Source: a virus
Taxonomy: Duplodnaviria; Heunggongvirae; Uroviricota; Caudoviricetes
Strand: one strand, 5' to 3'
DNA: 29,045 bases
IMG/VR virus record: IMGVR_UViG_2778261464_000005
Shown: positions 1 to 20,595 of the stretch, in pieces
Layout of the letters: every line of letters begins with the position of its first letter
Position numbering within the stretch: the stretch's first letter is position 1
The notes under the pieces: generated by a model
The model's input: the letters and a program-made list of their open reading frames with translations, nothing else
Told to the model about the DNA's origin: nothing
Databases searched by the model: none
Program-made: the position numbers and the translations under genes

Positions 1-77
1 CTTTAATAGATAACTATAATAAAGTTAAAAAATATTTAGATGGTTTTAAATCTCATTGCTATAAGTATAAATGTGGA

Positions 78-626
78 GTGGAGTATAAAAGACGCGCCGC
101 AACAGCCTTAGCTCATGGTATTTATGGGGATACTGATGAGGCTATCAGGAAATTTAATGATATTAACAGTGAAATAATAAAAGATCATGAAGAATCTGTC
201 CGGGCTAGATTATGCTATCAAATCGGAGCGTTTACACCTGTTATAGTATTGTCAGTAATTCTATTATTTATTTATCTGTTTAGAGATGCTGTTTTTTTTG
301 TAAAAAACCCCCTGTTTCTAACCTTACCTGTTTGTTTATTTTGGGCTTCTTTAGGGGGATATCTTTCTGTTTCACTAACCATAAAAAACACAGATCGAGA
401 AAAATCTTTAAAGAGAAGAATCTATTATTTTTATGGTGTAGAAAGATGTTTAATTGCTTTAGTGGCTGGTGTCATTTGTTATGCTATAATAAAAAGCGGA
501 TTAGTTCTTGATTTACTAAACAAAGAAGACAATAAATATGTGTTGTTTATAATATATTTACTTTCTGGGTTTAGCGAGACACTTATTCCAAATGCGCTTA
601 AAAGTATTGAGCGAAAGATAGACTAA
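78..626 (+). CDS. Polytopic membrane protein, function unknown; probably 5'-truncated by the window edge
   Basis: Track ORF begins with GTG at 78, but the same frame has no stop back to position 3, so the true start may lie upstream of the window. About four hydrophobic helices (VIVLSVILLFIYLF, LFLTLPVCLFWASLGG, LIALVAGVICYAII, YVLFIIYLLSGF). AT-rich and Lys-rich, unlike the prophage backbone. Confidence 0.45.
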   Translation: MEYKRRAATALAHGIYGDTDEAIRKFNDINSEIIKDHEESVRARLCYQIGAFTPVIVLSVILLFIYLFRDAVFFVKNPLFLTLPVCLFWASLGGYLSVSLTIKNTDREKSLKRRIYYFYGVERCLIALVAGVICYAIIKSGLVLDLLNKEDNKYVLFIIYLLSGFSETLIPNALKSIERKID

Positions 627-640
627 ATGTAAATTGTATT

Positions 641-1830
641 AGCTCAGACCTGATCTGACAGTTACCGGTTATTTATACAGGTATCTGTCAGATTACATCT
701 GGCTTAAATTTTTCTCGGCCCAGATGCGCTTTCCATCAAGTAACGTTTCCATTGGCGTCCGCCCATTGCACATTTTTCCCTGATGGGTTCGCTCATTATT
801 ATAGTGAGCCAGCCATTCATCAAGATCCGACTGTAATGTATCAAGATCGCCGTACAGTTTTTTACGGAACGTTACCTGATAAAATTCGTTCAGGATTGTT
901 TTATGGAACCGCTCGCAGATGCCGTTGGTCTGCGGGGACATCGCCTTTGTTTTCGTGTGTTCTACATCGTTTATTGCCAGATAAAGCTGATAATCATGCT
1001 GCTCTACTTTGCCACAGTACTCCGTGCCTCTGTCGGTCAGTATTCTCAGTATCGGCAGGCCCTGAGACGCATAAAACGGCAGTACACGATCATTCAGTAA
1101 GTCAGCCGCGGTAATCGGTGTTTTGGTGACGTAAAGCTTACAGTGAGCCACTTTCGAGTACGTATCAACGAACGTCTGCTGATAAATACGCCCGGCACCT
1201 TTCAGGTTGCCTACATAGAACGTGTCCTGCGAACCCAGATATCCCGGATGAGCCGTTTCGATTTCGCCACAGGCCTCGTCATCACTGGCTTTACGCTCCA
1301 GTGCTGCGATCTGGCTGTCAGTTAACTCAATGCCATCACGGGCTACTTTTTCTTCCAGTGCTTTCGGACGTTTTTTGAAATTCTCAAGGTTATGGCGTAA
1401 CCAGACAGAATGGACACCACTGCCGGAGATAAAAACGCCCTGTTTACGCAGCTCGTTGCTGCGTCCGGTGCTGACTGTGTGCCGGGAAAGCGACGGCGTA
1501 ATCAACAACAGCCTGTTCAGTTGCCTCATCGGTACGGTTCTTAAGGTTAGGAGCGCGGCGACTACGATTAATCAGCGCATCCACACCACCTTCATCGACC
1601 AGTTCGCGGTAACGATAAAACGTATCACGCGAAACGCCCATGATTTTACAGGCTTTTGATACGTTGCTGAGTTCTTCAGCCAGATTGAGCAAACCGGTTT
1701 TGTGTTTGATAACGGGATTGGTAGTATGAAGCATGAGAGTTACCTCGTGTTTTGTATAAGGATTCGACACCCATATCAAAACCGGTAACTCTCAACCTTT
1801 CAAGGCTCAGTGTCAGATCAAGTCGCGACT
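641..1830 (-). mobile_element. IS481-family (YagA-like) insertion sequence, about 1.2 kb, between the left-edge ORF and the 3' end of int
   Basis: Encloses the HTH + rve/DDE transposase ORFs. Ends share TGATCTGACA (about 651-660; reverse complement at about 1811-1820) and GTTACCGGTT (about 661-670; reverse complement at about 1781-1790), but the right end has about 20 extra bp between the two blocks, so the terminal inverted repeats are asymmetric. Boundaries approximate. Confidence 0.55.
693..1779 (-). pseudogene. IS481-family transposase (HTH + rve integrase core, YagA-like), split by a frameshift into two overlapping ORFs
   Basis: ORF 1444..1779 (111 aa) has the N-terminal HTH (SKACKIMGVSRDTFYRYRELVDEGG) and ends ...AFPAHSQHRT; ORF 693..1529 (278 aa) has the DDE/rve core (TDRGTEYCG ... 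SPQTNGICERFHKT). Together about 380 aa, the size of one IS481-type transposase. IS481-family transposases are normally a single ORF, so the split reads as a disrupting frameshift rather than a programmed one. Confidence 0.7.
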
Positions 1831-1845
1831 AATACATGTAAATAT

Positions 1846-2976
1846 TCATATTGTTAAAGTTACCCAATTTTTTCCGCGGAGATCGTTATAACGATCAGTT
1901 TGTTGCTGGGTTTTATGTCCCAGCAATTTCTGAGTATCTATTCCCTGTTCTTTGTATAGCCTTTCTGACAATGAACGTTGCTCATGAAAGGTTGCTGGGG
2001 TTCCTTCACCCCAATCAATTTCAGCCAGATCCCTTGCTTTGCTAAAATTCATAGTCAGAGTATTAGCTTTTACTTGTGCCCCACGTTCTGCCTGTGAAGT
2101 TGATCTGAAAAAATGTACTAAGTATGGACTATCTACATAGTCACGGCAGCGAGCTACAACATCGCGCAGGCTCCAGTTGATTACATTCAAACGAAGAGAA
2201 AGAGGAATGGCTATTTTGCTGCCGGTTTTTTCCTGTTCGATATGCAGATGATCATCCCAGATATCGCTGAATTTCATTTTGGATATATCTCCCAAACGTT
2301 GGCCAGTAACCAGCGCTAACAGCATGGCATTTCCCATGTAACGATGAGTGGAGTCTGCGATATCAAAAATTTTTTGCCATTCTTCCAGGCTGAGGCGTTG
2401 ACGGGTGATTTTCCTTCTGGGTTGCTTCGTCGCAAGAGCAGGGTTATACCCTGGTGGAACTTCGCCATAATGCTGTGCTTCCTTAAACACATCGATTAAT
2501 ACAGACCTTACGACTTGGGCCATTCTAGGCTGTCCAGCTGTAATATACTCATCAAGCAATTGTGCTATATCTCTGACATCAACGGATGAGATCAACTTCA
2601 TTCCTGCTCGTTCTCTGAGCAAGGATACTGGTTTGGCTTTTTGCTTATAGGTATTGAGTCTTATATCACCACTTTTGAGCCTATCATCCTGGATCGCTTG
2701 ATAGCGATCTAACCAGGTTGACGTTGTGATCGCTTTTCCTTTGCAGGTTGCGATCCTGTCACTGATAGCCAGAATCTGTCGGGTTCTTTGTTCAGCCAGG
2801 CGTGTATTGGCTTCAGTGGCAATAGCGATGGCTTCAGCTTCGTTAGTTCCCAACGCATGAAATTTCCCTGTTACTGGATGCTTATACCGCCAATAGACTT
2901 TATTTACCTTCCTACTATAAAGCGGATATAAGTTAGGTACTGAAACATTATTCTTACGCGGTCTGGCTGCCATCAC
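1846..2976 (-). CDS. int: Lambda-family tyrosine integrase
   Basis: 376 aa with N-terminal arm-binding-type region (NLYPLYSRKVNKVYWRYKHPVTGKFHALG) and C-terminal catalytic region (FHEQRSLSERLYKEQ...LLGHKTQQQTDRYNDLRGKNW) colinear with lambda Int as I recall it. Overlapping xis immediately upstream on the same strand. Confidence 0.9.
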   Translation of the reverse strand: MMAARPRKNNVSVPNLYPLYSRKVNKVYWRYKHPVTGKFHALGTNEAEAIAIATEANTRLAEQRTRQILAISDRIATCKGKAITTSTWLDRYQAIQDDRLKSGDIRLNTYKQKAKPVSLLRERAGMKLISSVDVRDIAQLLDEYITAGQPRMAQVVRSVLIDVFKEAQHYGEVPPGYNPALATKQPRRKITRQRLSLEEWQKIFDIADSTHRYMGNAMLLALVTGQRLGDISKMKFSDIWDDHLHIEQEKTGSKIAIPLSLRLNVINWSLRDVVARCRDYVDSPYLVHFFRSTSQAERGAQVKANTLTMNFSKARDLAEIDWGEGTPATFHEQRSLSERLYKEQGIDTQKLLGHKTQQQTDRYNDLRGKNWVTLTI

Positions 2977-3199
2977 TCAAGATCCGTTGCAAAAGTAATG
3001 AGTCATTTTTCTTGATTACTGGTGTTACCAACTCCCCAACTAACTCAGCGTCCTCACGCACTCGCCATAACCGACCTTGTTTCATGGCCGGTGGGCAAAA
3101 TAAATTCTGCTTAGCATAACGACGCAATGTGGACACACTTGGAGGATTACTTCTGTATTTTTCAGAGGCCCATTCTTCAAGAGTTAACATTTGAAGCAT
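2954..3199 (-). CDS. xis: Excisionase (lambda Xis-like)
   Basis: 81 aa, MLTLEEWASEKYRSNPPSVSTLRRYAKQNLFCPPAMKQGRLWRVRED resembles the lambda Xis winged-helix N-terminus. Overlaps the int start by 23 nt, the classic xis-int arrangement. True start may be the internal Met at about 3190. Confidence 0.75.
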   Translation of the reverse strand: MLQMLTLEEWASEKYRSNPPSVSTLRRYAKQNLFCPPAMKQGRLWRVREDAELVGELVTPVIKKNDSLLLQRILSDGSQTA

Positions 3200-3272: not shown

Positions 3273-3361
3273 ACAAAACAGAGAAGAGCACCTGTGGCCA
3301 CAACTATCAGGATGGATCGGGTTATGACCCCGTCATCCGGGGATACTCTTCTCTGTTTTGT
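3273..3361. repeat. Perfect 16-bp inverted repeat (ACAAAACAGAGAAGAG / CTCTTCTCTGTTTTGT) flanking a 57-bp spacer
   Basis: Read directly from the sequence; lies in an ORF-poor GC-rich stretch between xis and the next gene. Coordinates approximate. Confidence 0.6.
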
Positions 3362-3367
3362 AAAAAG

Positions 3368-3408
3368 GGCGGTACCAGCCGGAAGCAAGGGTACAAGCTG
3401 GTACCGCC
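3368..3408. repeat. Perfect 12-bp inverted repeat (GGCGGTACCAGC / GCTGGTACCGCC) with a 17-nt loop
   Basis: Read directly. The loop contains GGTACAAG, the same octamer as the half-site of the OR palindrome at 5230-5250. Further GC-rich stem-loops follow up to about 3560. Confidence 0.55.
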
Positions 3409-3625
3409 AAGACTACACACAGCATAAAGTTGTGGTGCCGGGTGCCTCCCGGTGCCTGGCGAAGGTTGCACACCAGGCGGGTGGGTATCCACAGAAGGTC
3501 GACTGTCAGCCTCAACCTTAACCCGCGTGCGCTGAGCCGCATTCACCACAACGCTAAGGATTCTCTCTGGTTGAAAATACTTAGCTGTTATGTGCCTGCT
3601 TTTAGCCACATCAGGCGAGGTGGAC

Positions 3626-3680
3626 CTGGTTATTCCCCAACAACAAGGATTCGGTTAATCTGGTTATCCCCAACAACGCA
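3626..3680 (+). repeat. Two copies of a ~20-bp direct repeat (CTGGTTAT(T)CCCCAACAAC) spaced ~34 bp, directly upstream of the 3693 start codon
   Basis: Read directly; the position suggests a regulator-binding or promoter element for the moron at 3693..4127. Confidence 0.5.
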
Positions 3681-3692
3681 AAAGGAAAAGAA

Positions 3693-4127
3693 ATGTCCGG
3701 TAATATCTATACGCTGTACAAATCCCACTGTGAAAATGTTGGAAAGTATCGGGGCATTGAAATCAGTGGGGTAGTGTCATCAGTCGAAATAAGCAAAGTT
3801 GAATCAAGGGCAACATTACTAACTCTTCTGGACCTTGTGTTACATGAGCACCGGAAGAAATTCGGCACTCCCTATAATCAGTTGAATGGGAAAAAGGCTC
3901 TGGTTCACCTTATTCTGATGAAGCATCACTGGATGCCAAAACAGATTAATGAGATGAAATTTGATGAACTTCTTCTTTCAATTCAGGATGAACTCACACT
4001 TGATAAAATAAGCGTAACCGCCCAGAAATTTTTAGATTATCGAGACTGGAGATCACAAATTCATCACTTTGATGATTTTGACGAAAATGAATGGGATCCT
4101 AATTTGTCTGCACAATATCTAAAGTAA
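3693..4127 (+). CDS. Hypothetical protein (AT-rich moron between xis and the immunity region)
   Basis: 144-aa ORF with no recognisable motif, transcribed opposite to int/xis/cI, lower GC than neighbours, preceded by the direct repeats above. Confidence 0.55.
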   Translation: MSGNIYTLYKSHCENVGKYRGIEISGVVSSVEISKVESRATLLTLLDLVLHEHRKKFGTPYNQLNGKKALVHLILMKHHWMPKQINEMKFDELLLSIQDELTLDKISVTAQKFLDYRDWRSQIHHFDDFDENEWDPNLSAQYLK

Positions 4128-4305
4128 CATCCTGTGATAAAACCGTGATTTCCTGATCCAGTTTTTTTAAGGAGTCTATTGTTTCCTGTCGATAAGACAG
4201 CACTTCACGAAGCTGGTTTATAGCTGCCAGCTTCTTTGTCATCCACTCATAAATTTCCTCATCTGTGTAGTCAGGCGCGACGATTTTGGGTTCTGTTTTG
4301 TGCAT
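4099..4305 (-). CDS. Small hypothetical protein (68 aa), first gene of the leftward early transcript
   Basis: Internal ATG at 4305 preceded by GAGGAGG (spacing ~6). Its 3' end overlaps the 3' end of the convergent 3693..4127 gene by 29 nt. No arginine-rich N-like motif. Confidence 0.45.
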   Translation of the reverse strand: MHKTEPKIVAPDYTDEEIYEWMTKKLAAINQLREVLSYRQETIDSLKKLDQEITVLSQDVTLDIVQTN

Positions 4306-4363
4306 TTCACACCTCCTCAAGTTATCAGTTACTTGTTGATGGGGACCAGATTGTTAAAGAGCT

Positions 4364-4388
4364 AAGCGTCCTGTAGGGCGCTTTTTTG
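4364..4388 (+). terminator. Putative intrinsic terminator (hairpin AAGCGTCC-TGTA-GGGCGCTT followed by T6)
   Basis: Stem with one G:T wobble plus TTTTTTG run, read directly. It could stop plus-strand transcription from the 3693 moron before the immunity region. Confidence 0.45.
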
Positions 4389-4454
4389 TTGCTAACGAAT
4401 CATCCTGGACTTCATATGCCCCAGGCGGCTACTTCGTGGGCGTCCTGCCTGTTT

Positions 4455-4500
4455 GTTGTTTTTCTTGGGTACATTATGTATCTCAAAGGTACATTGTCAA
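4455..4500. promoter_or_regulatory. Putative leftward operator/promoter region (OL/PL-like) carrying two GGTACA half-sites
   Basis: GGGTACATTATGTA and AGGTACATTGTCAAG share the GGTACA core with the OR palindrome. Sits between the cI terminator and the leftward small gene. Confidence 0.35.
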
Positions 4501-4502
4501 GT

Positions 4503-4526
4503 ATAAAAAAACCTGCCGAAGCAGGT
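4503..4526 (-). terminator. Intrinsic terminator downstream of cI (minus strand)
   Basis: Perfect hairpin ACCTGC-CGAA-GCAGGT (4511-4526) with an A7 run on the plus strand, i.e. a U-run after the hairpin on the minus strand, 14 nt past the cI stop. Confidence 0.6.
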
Positions 4527-4539
4527 TCATAAACATTGA

Positions 4540-5214
4540 TTAGGCTTTGATTTTGTATCTTCTTGGTTTTCCTGAGAAAATCACAGTACCAATTATAGAG
4601 CAATTACCGTTGATCTTAATGTAAGGCTCAGGCCAGTTTGGGTTTAACGCTTTGAGATAACGCTGTGTCCCATCTTCTATCAACCTTTTGAAGGTGGTTT
4701 CACCTGTATCGTGCATCAATGCAATAACGTCGTCACCGTGGCAGGCAGGTACTTCAGGATCGACAAAAATCATGTCTCCCGGGCGGTACTCATCAATCAT
4801 TGAATCACCTATCACCCGCAAGATATAAGTCATTTCCCCACAGGGTACAGGGCAGGGATACGTTTCTGCTGTGCTCAAATCAACCTCAGAATATCCAACT
4901 TCTTTCCATGCTCCGGCCTGTACCCATGATATGACAGGGACTAATGTGATTTGTTTATTAGTGATTGAAACATCAGGTTTTTTTGTGATGTTCGTTGTCT
5001 GGTGTTCTTGATCGAGCCATCCGACAGGCAGGTCGAAACATTTTTCGATGTGTCGTGCCATGCTGTCACCGATATTTTTAGTAGCACCATCTCCCATAAA
5101 CCTGCTGGTTTGGGTTGGCTCGCGATCAATCATAGTGGCAAAGGAAGAATTCCCGCCAACACCATCTCTCAGTTTTCTGGCGTTAGACCGCCGGATGTCA
5201 TGGATTGTTTTCAT
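4540..5214 (-). CDS. cI: CI-type prophage repressor (N-terminal HTH + C-terminal S24 LexA-like autopeptidase)
   Basis: 224 aa. The C-terminal segment VIGDSMIDEYRPGDMIFVDPE...FKRLIEDG...LKALNPNWP matches the S24 peptidase motif of lambda CI/LexA. Divergent from the Cro-like gene across an operator-bearing intergenic region. Confidence 0.85.
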   Translation of the reverse strand: MKTIHDIRRSNARKLRDGVGGNSSFATMIDREPTQTSRFMGDGATKNIGDSMARHIEKCFDLPVGWLDQEHQTTNITKKPDVSITNKQITLVPVISWVQAGAWKEVGYSEVDLSTAETYPCPVPCGEMTYILRVIGDSMIDEYRPGDMIFVDPEVPACHGDDVIALMHDTGETTFKRLIEDGTQRYLKALNPNWPEPYIKINGNCSIIGTVIFSGKPRRYKIKA

Positions 5215-5250: not shown

Positions 5251-5304
5251 TATCTTGAAGGTTCATTTTAATCATGTAATATGTATATTGGAGGTACATA
5301 TTGT

Positions 5305-5505
5305 ATGAAAGCGTATTGGGACTCTTTAACCAAAGAACAGCAGGGCGAGTTGGCCGGAAAAGTTGGCTCAACACCTGGCTACTTACGGCTGGTTTTCAAT
5401 GGCTATAAAAAAGCCAGTTTTGTGCTGGCTAAAAAACTTGAGCAATGCACGTCAGGTGCAATTACGAAATCTGACTTAAGACCGGATATCTATCCGAAAG
5501 ATTAG
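5305..5505 (+). CDS. cro: Cro/YdaS-like HTH regulator
   Basis: Start taken at the internal ATG 5305 (MKAYWDSLTKEQQGELAGKVGSTPGYLRLVFNGYKKAS...), preceded by GGAGG ~9 nt upstream. Small HTH protein divergent from cI. Confidence 0.7.
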   Translation: MKAYWDSLTKEQQGELAGKVGSTPGYLRLVFNGYKKASFVLAKKLEQCTSGAITKSDLRPDIYPKD

Positions 5506-5536: not shown

Positions 5537-6106
5537 ATGAGGCTAATCGTGGGTAAGCATCACTGGAAAATAGAAAAACAGCCTGAGTGGTACATGAAAG
5601 CTGTCAGAAAAACTATCGCGGCGTTGCCGGGTGGTTACGCTGAAGCCGCTGACTGGCTGGATGTAACAGAGAACGCTTTATTCAACCGCCTTCGTGCAGA
5701 TGGCGATCAGATTTTTCCGCTGGGATGGGCAATGGTTTTACAGCGTGCTGGTGGCACTCACTTCATTGCTGATGCTGTGGCGCAGTCTGCAAATGGCGTA
5801 TTTGTGTCTCTTCCTGACGTCGAGGATGTGGACAACGCCGATATTAACCAGCGTCTGCTGGAAGTCATTGAACAGATCGGCAGTTATTCAAAACAGATTC
5901 GTTCAGCAATCGAAGACGGTGTAGTGGAACCGCATGAGAAGACAGCAATTAACGACGAGCTGTATCTCTCAATTTCGAAGCTGCAGGAGCATGCAGCACT
6001 GGTCTACAAAATCTTTTGCATTTCAGAAAGTAATGACGCCCGCGAGTGTGCAGCTCCGGGCGTCGTGGCGTCGATTGCTTCTGGTTGTGGAGAAACTAAC
6101 GCATGA
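5537..6106 (+). CDS. CII-like / YdaT-family regulatory protein
   Basis: 189 aa directly after the Cro-like gene; size and position fit the Rac-type YdaS-YdaT pair. Start uncertain (ATG 5537, or GTG 5551 with a better SD). Confidence 0.55.
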
Positions 6107-17491: not shown

Positions 17492-19221
17492 GCCGGAAAT
17501 CTTACCCCAACGTAAATGCAGCCAATCAGTATGCCCGTGATGTCGTGCGCGGAAAGATTGTGGCCTGCCAGTTTGTGATTCAGGCCTGCCAGCGCCATCT
17601 TGATGACCTGATGGCGGAAAAAAGTAAGTCGTTTCGTTACCGCTTCGACAAGGACCTGGCTGAACGGGCCGCGAAATTTATTCAGCTGTTGCCGCACACC
17701 AAGGGTGAGTGGGCATTCAAACGGATGCCCATCACGCTGGAGCCGTGGCAGCTATTTGTGATCTGCTGTGCGTTTGGCTGGGTCAATAAAGGCACCCGGT
17801 TGCGCCGCTTCCGGGAGGTGTATACCGAAATCCCCCGTAAGAACGGCAAATCAGCAATCTCTGCCGGTGTTGCCCTGTATTGTTTTGCCTGTGATAACGA
17901 GTTTGGCGCGGAAGTGTATTCCGGTGCCACGACAGAGAAACAGGCGTGGGAAGTCTTTCGCCCGGCGCGACTGATGTGTAAACGCACACCCATGCTGACG
18001 GAAGCGTTCGGGATTGAGGTTAACGCCTCAAACATGAACCGTCCGGAGGATGGCGCGCGGTTTGAACCGCTGATCGGTAACCCTGGTGATGGTTCATCAC
18101 CCCACTGTGCGGTGGTGGATGAATATCACGAGCACGCCACCGATGCGCTTTATACCACGATGCTTACCGGGATGGGGGCGCGACGTCAGCCACTGATGTG
18201 GGCCATCACCACCGCCGGGTACAACATTGAGGGGCCGTGCTACGACAAGCGGCGGGAAGTTATCGAGATGCTCAACGGTTCGGTACCCAACGATGAACTG
18301 TTCGGGATCATCTATACCGTTGATGAAGGTGACGACTGGACCGACCCGCAGGTGCTGGAAAAAGCCAATCCAAATATTGGCGTGTCGGTTTATCGCGAAT
18401 TTTTGTTAAGTCAGCAGCAGCGTGCTAAAAATAACGCCCGTCTGGCAAACGTCTTTAAAACAAAACACCTCAATATCTGGGTGTCGGCGCGTTCGGCGTA
18501 TTTCAACCTGGTGAGCTGGCAGAGCTGCGAGGATAAATCACTGACCCTTGAGCAGTTCGAGGGGCAGCCGTGCATTCTGGCCTTTGACCTGGCGCGTAAG
18601 CTGGATATGAACAGCATGGCGCGACTTTATACCCGCGAGATTGACGGTAAAACGCATTACTACAGTGTGGCCCCGCGTTTCTGGGTACCGTATGACACGG
18701 TGTACAGCGTCGAGAAAAATGAAGATCGCCGGACAGCCGAACGCTTTCAGAAATGGGTGGAAATGGGCGTTCTGACTGTTACCGCTGGTGCGGAGGTGGA
18801 TTATCGCTACATCCTCGAGGAGGCCAAAGCGGCGAACAAAATCAGCCCGGTCAGTGAGTCACCCATCGACCCCTTCGGGGCGACCGGGCTGTCGCATGAC
18901 CTTGCTGATGAAGACCTGAACCCCATCACCATCATTCAGAACTACACCAACATGTCCGATCCGATGAAAGAGCTGGAAGCGGCGATTGAATCGGGGCGCT
19001 TTCATCATGACGGCAATCCCATCATGACCTGGTGTATCGGCAACGTGGTCGGCAAAACCATTCCGGGTAACGATGATGTGGTGAAGCCTGTCAAGGAGCA
19101 GGCGGAAAACAAAATCGATGGTGCGGTTGCACTGATTATGGCGATCGGTCGGGCAATGCTCAAAGAACCCGACGATTTCCTCTCATCTCTTGATCCGGAC
19201 GATGCTCTCTTAATTCTATGA
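17488..19221 (+). CDS. Terminase large subunit (HK97-like)
   Basis: 577 aa with ATPase region ([18 protein letters not shown], ...AVVDEYHEH) and nuclease region; position between the small subunit and portal. Confidence 0.9.
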
Positions 19222-19379
19222 AATCACTAATTGCTGATGTTATCGGGCTGGCTGGTTTTGGCCTGCTTACGTGCGGGTTTTACCTGCAGTTTGGTATGGC
19301 TCCGGCTCTGATGCTGTCCGGCGGTTTACTGCTGGTGGGCGCACTGGCTATGGCCAGAAGGGGGACGCGTGCTGCTTGA
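19218..19379 (+). CDS. Possible small membrane protein (53 aa) between terminase and portal
   Basis: ATG overlaps the terminase stop (ATGA); hydrophobic ([43 protein letters not shown]); overlaps the portal start. Below the ORF-track size cut-off, so weak. Confidence 0.3.
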
Positions 19380-20595
19380 TGCTCTGTTCAGAAGTAAATC
19401 ACTGGAGAATCCTTCCACCCCGATAACCGGGGATGCCGTTGATACTGATGGGCTGTTCCGGGCAGACGTTTATGTCAGTCCTGAAACTGCGATGAAACTG
19501 GCTGCGGTGTATTCCTGTATCTATGTCCTGTCTTCCAGCCTTGCCCAGATGCCGTTGCATGTTATGCGCAGGCACAATGGGAAGGTTGAGCCCGCACGCG
19601 ATCATCCGGCGTTTTATCTGGTTCATGATGAGCCCAATACCTGGCAAACCAGTTACAAATGGCGCGAACTGAAGCAACGTCACATCCTTGGCTGGGGGAA
19701 TGGGTATACCTGGGTGAAACGTAATCGTCGCGGTGAAGTCATATCCCTGGATTGCTGTATGCCGTGGGAAACGACGCTGATGAATACTGGTGGCCGATAC
19801 ACCTACGGTTTGTACAACGAATATGGGGCGTTTGCGATCAGCCCCGACGATATGATCCACATCCGTGCGCTGGGTAATAATCAGAAGATGGGGCTGAGTC
19901 CGATTATGCAACATGCCGAAACAATAGGCATGGGGATGAGCGGTCAGAAATACACAGAAAGCTTCTTCAGCGGTAATGCCCGTCCGGCGGGGATAGTATC
20001 CGTTAAAAGCGGACTCAATAAGGACAGCTGGGGCTGGCTTAAAGATCAGTGGCAGAAGGCATCGCAGGCGTTACGCAGCCAGGAAAACAAAACCATGCTG
20101 CTGCCAGCCGATCTGGATTACAAGGCACTGACTGTGTCGCCAGTTGACGCTCAGATCATTGACATGATGAAACTGAACCGTTCAATGATTGCCGGTATTT
20201 TCAATATTCCTGCGCACATGATTAATGACCTCGAAAAAGCCACCTTCTCCAATATTTCTGCGCAGGCGATTCAGTTTGTCCGCTACACGATGATGCCGTG
20301 GGTGACGAACTGGGAGCAGGAGCTTAACCGTCGCTTGTTTACCCGCGCTGAGTTAGCCGCCGGGTATTACGTCAGGTTCAATCTGACGGGGCTTTTACGC
20401 GGAACTCCACAGGAGCGCGCGCAATTCTATCACTTCGCTATTACCGATGGATGGATGAGCCGTAATGAGGCCCGTGCATTCGAGGATATGAATCCGGTTG
20501 AAGGGCTGGATGAGATGCTGGTAAGCGTGAATGCTGCTAACCCGGCAGGAGATTTTAAGCCCCCAAAAAATGATGAGGGAAAAACCAATGAATGA
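19369..20595 (+). CDS. Portal protein (HK97 family)
   Basis: 408 aa; size, position after terminase and conserved-looking core (FSGNARPAGIVSVKSGLNKDSWGWLKDQWQ). GTG start. Confidence 0.85.
   Translation: MLLDALFRSKSLENPSTPITGDAVDTDGLFRADVYVSPETAMKLAAVYSCIYVLSSSLAQMPLHVMRRHNGKVEPARDHPAFYLVHDEPNTWQTSYKWRELKQRHILGWGNGYTWVKRNRRGEVISLDCCMPWETTLMNTGGRYTYGLYNEYGAFAISPDDMIHIRALGNNQKMGLSPIMQHAETIGMGMSGQKYTESFFSGNARPAGIVSVKSGLNKDSWGWLKDQWQKASQALRSQENKTMLLPADLDYKALTVSPVDAQIIDMMKLNRSMIAGIFNIPAHMINDLEKATFSNISAQAIQFVRYTMMPWVTNWEQELNRRLFTRAELAAGYYVRFNLTGLLRGTPQERAQFYHFAITDGWMSRNEARAFEDMNPVEGLDEMLVSVNAANPAGDFKPPKNDEGKTNE

Follow-up and report, generated by a model that had tools for sequence, protein, structure and literature searches.

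The early-left region of a lambdoid prophage raises the question of why a gene should be set against the transcription of the operon in which it lies. The region belongs to a stretch of viral DNA of 29,045 nucleotides (nt), IMG/VR record IMGVR_UViG_2778261464_000005, which is referred to as the window and is an e14/SfIV-type prophage at icd. Between int and xis on the left and the genes of the S24 repressor and Cro on the right, an early-left location that had been recognized from the sequence alone, a rightward gene for a protein of 144 amino acids (aa) meets a leftward gene for a protein of 68 aa. The first product belongs to the ECs1072 family and the second to the YdfC family. The two genes occupy a slot that has its own leader, an inverted-repeat boundary and a terminator, and that holds at least four unrelated cargoes. 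The preferred reading, to which we assign a probability of about 0.45 and which is therefore tentative, is that the pair is one filling of a swappable cargo slot set against the operon of the early-left promoter, PL, and that it contains an accessory gene expressed in the lysogen and silenced by transcription from PL.

The convergent pair and the slot that holds it

The open reading frame (ORF) of the 144-aa protein occupies 3693-4127 on the plus strand. The 68-aa ORF runs on the minus strand from an ATG at 4305 to its stop at 4099; counted from a TTG at 4320, the program-listed ORF has 73 aa. The 3' ends of the two genes share 4099-4127, which is the 29-nt overlap of the original prediction. 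Both ORFs are annotated in RefSeq and each matches a full-length PHROG profile. The G+C content of the coding sequences is 38.2% for the 144-aa gene and 40.1% for the 68-aa gene, compared with 48.7% for the window. The larger gene is, as had been claimed, AT-rich and moron-like and lies antisense to the early-left operon, in a hypervariable slot between xis and the repressor gene.

A PL-like promoter is found on the minus strand at 4457-4500. It reads TTGACA-16-CATAAT (4500-4473), agrees with the consensus at 11/12 positions and is overlapped by operator-like repeats, GGTACAT/TACATTATGTA. Its position upstream of the 68-aa gene makes this gene the first ORF of the early-left operon. In a consensus scan no terminator separates the stop codons of the two ORFs, so antisense transcripts are expected. 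The antisense relation proposed earlier is present, but it is not limited to 29 nt. The strongest terminator for rightward transcripts is a rho-independent one at 4364-4389 on the plus strand (a hairpin at 4364-4383 with a T-run after it), which is situated past the start of the 68-aa gene; in the opposite direction, PL transcripts must cross the entire 144-aa gene to reach a probable small RNA (sRNA) gene, xis and int. A further terminator-like hairpin inside the 68-aa gene (4209-4234, plus strand), seen in the consensus scan only and less convincing than that at 4364-4383, is a possible early stop for the rightward messenger RNA (mRNA).

Upstream of the 144-aa gene are two direct repeats of about 20 base pairs (bp), whose presence was confirmed. 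R1, CTGGTTATTCCCCAACAAC, is 19 nt long (3626-3644, plus strand) and is conserved in more than 200 loci. R2, CTGGTTATCCCCAACAAC, is 18 nt long (3660-3677, plus strand) and is distinguished from R1 by one inserted T. The repeat pattern has two matches in the window and 0.00 expected in 100 shuffles. The repeats were thought to indicate regulation dedicated to the 144-aa gene. They turned out to be part of a conserved leader common to at least four unrelated cargo genes, and one of them has an inverted partner across the cassette. A search of viral contigs, together with loci from other searches, gave at least 209 leader-bearing sites. The conserved sequence begins at about 3590 and ends with R2, at a distance of 10-15 nt from the start codon. 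The leader measures about 95-110 nt; its left half (3590-3625, plus strand), delimited by an alignment of 15 loci with unrelated upstream DNA, is also kept in e14 of K-12. The leader block is retained even where the DNA further upstream is unrelated. Between the window and Escherichia albertii it is 98.5% identical, and the coding sequence of the 144-aa gene 78.9%.

Four types of cargo have been found behind this leader. The first consists of ECs1072 alleles of 33-100% identity. The second is a coiled-coil/zinc-ribbon (Zn-ribbon) protein of 155-208 aa with two CxxC pairs, represented by 15 alleles. The third begins with a proline-rich peptide of 26-32 aa, which is followed by a protein of 150-162 aa with two transmembrane segments (2TM), and the fourth is a secreted LprI-like protein. 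For the cargoes other than ECs1072, Pfam and NCBIfam gave nothing useful and PADLOC no defence model; one of them had insignificant matches to 2TM effectors only. Among the leader-bearing loci listed, a YdfC-like gene accompanies the ECs1072 cargo in 154/154 cases and any other cargo in 0/40, which assigns the YdfC-like gene to the ECs1072 cargo rather than to the phage backbone. The ECs1072 cargo is present in 422 of 5,426 complete E. coli genomes and its Zn-ribbon sister in the same slot in 650. The same pair occurs at about 99% identity in SfIV, a functional Shigella phage, in Kati and in other phages. Searches for an empty slot found none in IMG/VR.

On the right, all cargo types are followed by the same sequence, ...GGGGATATCCAGATTGTTAAAGAGC, and then by the terminator hairpin. 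The first part of this sequence is an inverted copy of R2. The left inverted-repeat arm, IR-L, is at 3657-3676 and overlaps R2; the right arm, IR-R, is at 4333-4352 and is complementary both to IR-L and to R1 (coordinates on the plus strand). Pairing in the window joins 3657-3676 to 4333-4352, and also 3634-3647 of R1 to 4332-4345. The arm duplex has an energy of -19 to -34 kcal/mol in all 24 distinct arm pairs, and arms shuffled as a null give -8.8 +/- 2.9. Where loci differ in their arms, the differences are paired: a T..A combination in the group of the window is A..T elsewhere, compensatory arms are present in locus L127 (GGATGACT/AGTCATCC), and CAACAATG appears on both sides in locus L177. 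Mini-constructs form stems of about 19-20 bp beside the terminator, with z values of -3 to -5.6.

Other roles of the leader were also considered. Its plus strand is unusually unstructured, with 198-199 of 200 shuffled sequences folding better (z about +2). On this basis the idea that each repeat forms a hairpin masking the Shine-Dalgarno sequence was rejected, and the result also argues against a riboswitch of the hairpin type. Paired sites for CsrA (ACAAGGAU twice) were a weak idea only, and the Zn-ribbon cargo has ribosome-binding sites that lack the second GGA. A gene for a phage CsrA homologue (2-169, minus strand, in locus L099) lies divergently beside an ECs1072 homologue of 37% identity, and the ACAAGGAU of the leader resembles a CsrA site, which may be a coincidence. 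Patterns for sigma-54, IHF, ArcA, lambda CII and Hin/Pin sites were compared with the leader by eye and none fits convincingly.

ECs1072-like and YdfC-like genes as a module

The 144-aa protein matches the NCBIfam model NF033230, "ECs1072 family phage-associated protein", with 157.8 bits over residues 4-144 (cut-off 70), and phrog_5286 with E 1.5e-90 over residues 1-144. The namesake of the family, ECs_5703 (formerly ECs1072) of strain Sakai, matches the family profile at E 4e-15. A complete HMMER scan gave 76 cluster representatives, nearly all of 145-155 aa. Residues L50, R54, L64, G66, A69 and H72 are near-invariant and W134 is invariant. The ratio of non-synonymous to synonymous substitution between the window and the E. 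albertii allele is 0.23, which identifies the ORF as a real gene under purifying selection. With the family alignment as input, AlphaFold (AF2) predicts a confident all-helical structure (mean predicted local distance difference test score 94.7, predicted template modelling score 0.89). The protein is hydrophilic overall, with a grand average of hydropathy (GRAVY) of -0.47, and was rated cytoplasmic. A Foldseek search of the model against PDB and BFVD gave no match, nor did a PDB sequence search with the family profile. An HD, HD-GYP or HDOD phosphohydrolase was considered for this protein and rejected, as a structural match together with the conserved H...HD...D metal-binding motif was not found. 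Literature searches for ECs1072, the RefSeq accession, ymfH and YdfC brought up no functional study. ECs1072 is among the genes with altered expression at a growth transition in a Sakai microarray experiment in glucose minimal medium, with a log ratio of -2.13 (PMC2241611).

The 68-aa gene, treated earlier as an anonymous small ORF, proved to be an intact early gene of the YdfC family. Its product is 42% identical to YdfC of K-12 over 66 aa (BLASTP, E 1e-18) and matches phrog_1744 at E 4.5e-35, a profile that K-12 YdfC matches too. It is acidic and hydrophilic (GRAVY -0.55), and its gene is a conserved coding gene. The ydfC gene itself, so far uncharacterised, forms part of the early-left operon ydfABC-dicF-dicB of the prophage Qin. 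Searches of PDB with the 68-aa protein gave weak matches only (best E about 0.01). Pfam and NCBIfam searches of both proteins yielded no functional annotation and, in Pfam, no toxin or antitoxin. A toxin-antitoxin system of type II was rejected on this ground, together with the convergence of the genes and the lack of a significant fold match. A system of type I, with a hydrophobic toxin of less than about 60 aa and a non-coding antisense RNA, was rejected as well, both proteins being hydrophilic and the 68-aa gene coding.

Convergent, overlapping pairs of an ECs1072-like and a YdfC-like gene recur down to about 33% identity, and the two form a module. Early-left pairs stand beside various repressors; they include that of E. 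albertii (72%) and those of loci L133, L177, L099 (37%) and L100/L101. Other pairs are located between the Q antiterminator and the holin gene, in a Serratia locus (L018, 35%) and in L110, where the pair follows a PR'-like promoter and two terminators. A third position is that of prophage Sp4 of Sakai (L229). Here ECs_5703 (19361-19816, minus strand) is antisense between the cII-like and the replication (O) genes of the PR operon, and an unannotated ORF at 19168-19677 on the plus strand converges on it; the ORF carries the N-terminal motif of the YdfC-like proteins, with a modest match of 14.5 bits. In every pair the YdfC-like gene is co-oriented with the lytic operon, be it that of PL, PR or PR', and the large gene is opposed to it. 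Overlaps are 9 to 95 nt long, and the YdfC-like protein has a C-terminal tail that varies with them. The conserved feature is thus the abutting convergent arrangement and not the 29 nt.

Some loci have an altered content. L006 (about 4560-4830) and L131 have in common a segment of a few hundred nt that is rich in G+C, appears to be structured and has no Rfam match; in L131 it is upstream of the leader, and in L006 it replaces the YdfC-like gene beside an ECs1072 homologue. In L014 and 10 similar loci the insertion sequence IS1 follows directly after the leader, replaces the 144-aa gene and truncates the ydfC-like gene. The large gene of L013 is truncated to 63 aa.

How the pair could work

According to the preferred reading, the two genes would be expressed in opposite phases of the phage life cycle. 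In the lysogen the YmfK-type repressor would shut PL, and only the rightward mRNA would be made. The 3' part of this mRNA would be antisense across the entire ydfC-like gene, up to the terminator at 4364-4383. On induction, transcription from PL would make the YdfC-like protein first and then run head-on through the 144-aa gene, which would be silenced by transcriptional interference and antisense RNA, before proceeding through the STnc100-like sRNA into xis and int. On this view the 144-aa protein would be an accessory factor of the lysogenic phase, for which superinfection exclusion, anti-phage defence or host modulation appears most plausible, and the YdfC-like protein would be its lytic-phase counterpart, possibly an antidote. 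A role in defence, in exclusion or as an antidote is suggested by the position of the pair, the diversity of the cargo, its AT-richness and the mosaic evolution of the slot. The genes are convergent and their ORFs overlap by 29 nt, which is the gene arrangement of an excludon. Reciprocal expression of the pair as an excludon may be expected by analogy with just two pairs of K-12, ymfI-ymfJ of e14 and sieB-ydaF of Rac, both listed as excludons detected by RNA sequencing (PMC12288877).

A number of results weigh against this reading. The promoter of the 144-aa gene, the extents of the transcripts, mutual exclusion and a defence or antidote activity are all inferred. The consensus scan gave no sigma-70 promoter upstream of the 144-aa gene; a weak candidate is TTATTC...TAATCT within R1/R2, whose -10 hexamer TAATCT (3657-3662) is overlapped by IR-L. 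The stem of the two arms shows no strand preference, the plus strand being more stable in 9 of the 24 pairs when duplex energies with G-U pairs are compared, so the role of the arms could be in the PL transcript or in the DNA and not in the cargo mRNA. Each partner is also found alone: ECs1072 homologues lack a YdfC-like gene in L006, L102/L103 and L108/L109, and YdfC is present without ECs1072 in Qin and in PPompW phages. The partnership is therefore frequent, not obligatory. The E. coli and E. albertii alleles of the large protein are 28% different, whereas residues 1-47 of the YdfC-like protein are nearly the same in both, which argues against a tightly co-evolving antidote that acts by protein-protein contact. 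The original prediction had mentioned defence. Such a role of the 144-aa gene would have to be accepted with no Pfam, PADLOC or fold match that supports this or any other activity of the pair: Pfam and PADLOC models match none of 47 ECs1072-family members, neither protein of the window matches PADLOC-DB 2.0 at E <= 1, and the two are not among the entries in the DefensePredictor supplements.

The alternative that survives best, though in our estimate unlikely, places the relation of the two genes at the protein level, as a toxin and its antidote or as abortive infection and self-immunity. The 144-aa protein would harm infecting phages or the cell and the early YdfC-like protein would neutralize it, so that the prophage's own lytic cycle could proceed; the logic is akin to that of SieB/Esc of P22 or of BstA/aba. 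Such an interplay would fit the tight linkage and fixed relative orientation of the genes across three operon positions, and the small gene always points the same way as the lytic operon, close to its promoter. The replacement by IS1 in 11 loci and the truncation of the large gene are what might be expected of a costly gene. However, the genes are not arranged as in a type II toxin-antitoxin operon, and a toxin fold was not recognized. Moreover, homologues of the large gene occur without the small one, and changes in the large protein are not accompanied by changes in the conserved part of the small one.

A still less probable explanation assigns the inverted repeats mainly to the leftward PL transcript. 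The stem of 19-20 bp would loop out the antisense cargo and be a site for RNase III or other processing, by which the STnc100/DicF-like sRNA is matured or the message for xis and int insulated; the cargoes would be tolerated passengers. The stem is retained with every type of cargo, the duplex of the arms is slightly more stable on the minus strand (-26.8 compared with -25.1 kcal/mol), and a probable STnc100-like sRNA with a DicF-like hairpin is encoded immediately downstream on that strand. DicF of Qin, which is cut out of the ydfABC-dicF-dicB transcript, provides a parallel. Left unexplained are the rightward direction of every cargo, its fixed start 10-15 nt after the leader and the conserved rightward terminator.

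An extended form of the preferred reading would regard the whole as a "mini-integron-like" expression slot, antisense within the PL operon, that exchanges protective genes expressed in the lysogen. ECs1072 and YdfC would then be a new abortive-infection or exclusion protein and its lytic-phase antidote, and the inverted repeats a switch or processing element that couples the cargo to the state of lysis or lysogeny. We consider this extension improbable, to about the same degree as a role of the repeats in the PL transcript.

It is very unlikely that the inverted repeats are sites of recombination at which cassettes are exchanged by a site-specific or structure-directed recombinase, as at attC of integrons or at pdif, with R1 as a relic or spare. 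The same arms do bound unrelated cargo families, their constant parts together make a near-perfect palindrome, AATCTGGATATCCAGATT, and the apical parts differ by cargo type as if they were borne by the cassette. CCCCAAC and GTTGGGG each match 6/7 positions of the integron cores, RYYYAAC and GTTRRRY, and this was counted in favour of recombination. Against it, only the int and xis of the prophage, and no dedicated recombinase, are linked to the slot, searches of IMG/VR brought up no empty site, and the replacement in e14 of K-12 extends past the arms. The flanks are highly conserved, and homologous recombination within them accounts for the mosaics equally well.

Equally improbable, and already disfavoured, is the view that these are two ordinary, tightly packed small early genes with an overlap due to stop-codon drift and repeats due to a neutral tandem duplication: the unconserved overlap of 9-95 nt, the variable YdfC-like C-terminal tail and the uncharacterised state of both proteins would be in keeping with it, but not the association of 154/154 and 0/40, the retention of the pair in three different operons down to about 33-35% identity, a leader far more conserved than the coding sequence, or the complementary arms in 24/24 pairs.

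Surroundings, related systems and meaning

Once past the cassette, PL transcripts would enter an STnc100/PasD-like sequence with a DicF-like 3' hairpin (3359-3582, minus strand), at the place of the "ymfH" pseudo-ORF. The Rfam model RF02076 (STnc100) matches it over its full length, 1-206, with E 4.3e-8 and 45.2 bits, just below the gathering score of 47, and the DicF model gives 24.9 bits on 3367-3421. This stretch, which other annotations call ymfH or a frameshifted hypothetical ORF, probably encodes an sRNA and not a protein. The order of the early-left operon would then be PL, the ydfC-like gene, the antisense cargo, the sRNA, xis and int, which would parallel ydfABC-dicF-dicB of Qin.

The remaining genes of the region are those of a prophage of this kind. 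Left of the pair are int (1846-2976) and xis (2954-3199). To its right are the gene of a YmfK/CohE-type S24 repressor (ymfK-like; 4540-5214, minus strand), which has its own terminator downstream at 4509-4528 on the minus strand, cro (5281-5505) and a CII-like gene (5537-6106). The closest E. coli match, at 99.7% identity, has the order icd, an IS481 remnant, intE, xisE, the frameshifted "hypothetical" ORF, both genes of the pair and ymfK. The segment 4390-4456 between the rightward terminator and PL (GCTAACGAATCATCC...GGCGGCTACTTCGTGGGCGTCCTGCCTGTT) is kept in e14 of K-12 and with every type of cargo; it would form the 5' leader of the PL transcript and is a candidate put- or nut-like element. 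Between the side of the attachment site and int, a transposase of the IS481 family is frameshifted into two ORFs (693-1779, minus strand) and is annotated likewise in the nearest E. coli genome. Beside it, at the left edge of the window, is an AT-rich ORF (78-626, plus strand, about 30% G+C) with a protein sequence that looks hydrophobic. Possibly this is a further accessory gene at the end of the prophage.

Among known systems, ymfI/ymfJ of e14 is closest in place. It has the same position between "ymfH" and ymfK, its genes converge with a 3' overlap of 63 nt, and ymfJ is the first gene of the PL operon. As relatives of the 144-aa and 68-aa proteins, YmfI and YmfJ were rejected for want of a sequence relationship, and the K-12 locus differs in lacking R1/R2 as a pair, the right inverted-repeat arm and the rightward terminator. 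Comparable to the 68-aa gene in position, ymfJ is induced at a late stage of the SOS response (PMC11002266). The ydfABC-dicF-dicB operon of Qin resembles that of the window in being early-left, under the control of a repressor and with a YdfC homologue; after this comes a DicF-like/STnc100-like sRNA, a probable one in the window. Unlike the window, it has no antisense gene after ydfC, a place where related phages carry other, unrelated convergent genes. In Qin-type phages, unrelated small antisense genes were seen immediately downstream of ydfC (L106, 2723-3016, minus strand) and one gene further (L105, 3127-3360, minus strand), which suggests a second variable antisense slot near ydfC in these phages. 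The sieB gene of Rac, lambda and P22 is an accessory gene expressed in the lysogen against the PL operon, as proposed for the 144-aa gene, and in Rac it is listed with ydaF as a convergent excludon. The logic of the self-immunity factor of P22 sieB/esc is comparable, Esc being an internal product of sieB. However, Esc is not encoded by a separate convergent gene, and the 144-aa protein is hydrophilic, has no sequence or fold similarity to SieB and does not match its Pfam model.

The hotspots of anti-phage genes in P2 and P4 and other prophage cargo hotspots resemble the slot in that unrelated, mostly uncharacterised cargo alternates between conserved flanks. They differ from it in that the slot has a leader and terminator of its own and complementary inverted repeats, is antisense to a lytic operon and holds no cargo that matches a known defence model. 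Integron cassettes and pdif modules also have varied, promoter-less cargo behind a shared upstream element and imperfect inverted-repeat bounds. In the slot, by contrast, no integron integrase or Xer-type protein is associated, the gene is between the arms and not beside a compact attC, and there is no array, nor was an empty site found. Assignment as an integron gene cassette was rejected, the CCCCAAC/GTTGGGG arms being near matches only and the sole integrase that of the prophage. The moron slot between Q and the holin gene, the stx position, contains the distant ECs1072/YdfC pairs of L110 and Serratia L018; the module of the window differs from it by being in the early-left operon, and the large gene, unlike stx, is antisense to the late transcript.

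Elements of these kinds are known: hypervariable slots for moron or defence genes beside prophage repressors, accessory genes in antisense orientation such as sieB, and excludons. Both protein families are catalogued, though uncharacterised. The linkage of ECs1072 and YdfC, its antisense placement in all three lytic operons and an inverted-repeat slot with its own leader and terminator were not found described. The module is common in E. coli, and all its parts are annotated as hypothetical. That ECs1072 and YdfC work jointly is a testable claim and would give a first functional handle on YdfC, a y-gene of K-12. The antisense placement in the PL, PR or PR' operon predicts that expression is tied to the state of lysis or lysogeny. 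If the arms prove functional, they would be an unusual long-range element that encloses whole genes. A slot that collects unrelated, uncharacterised genes is a good place to look for new exclusion and defence functions of prophages.

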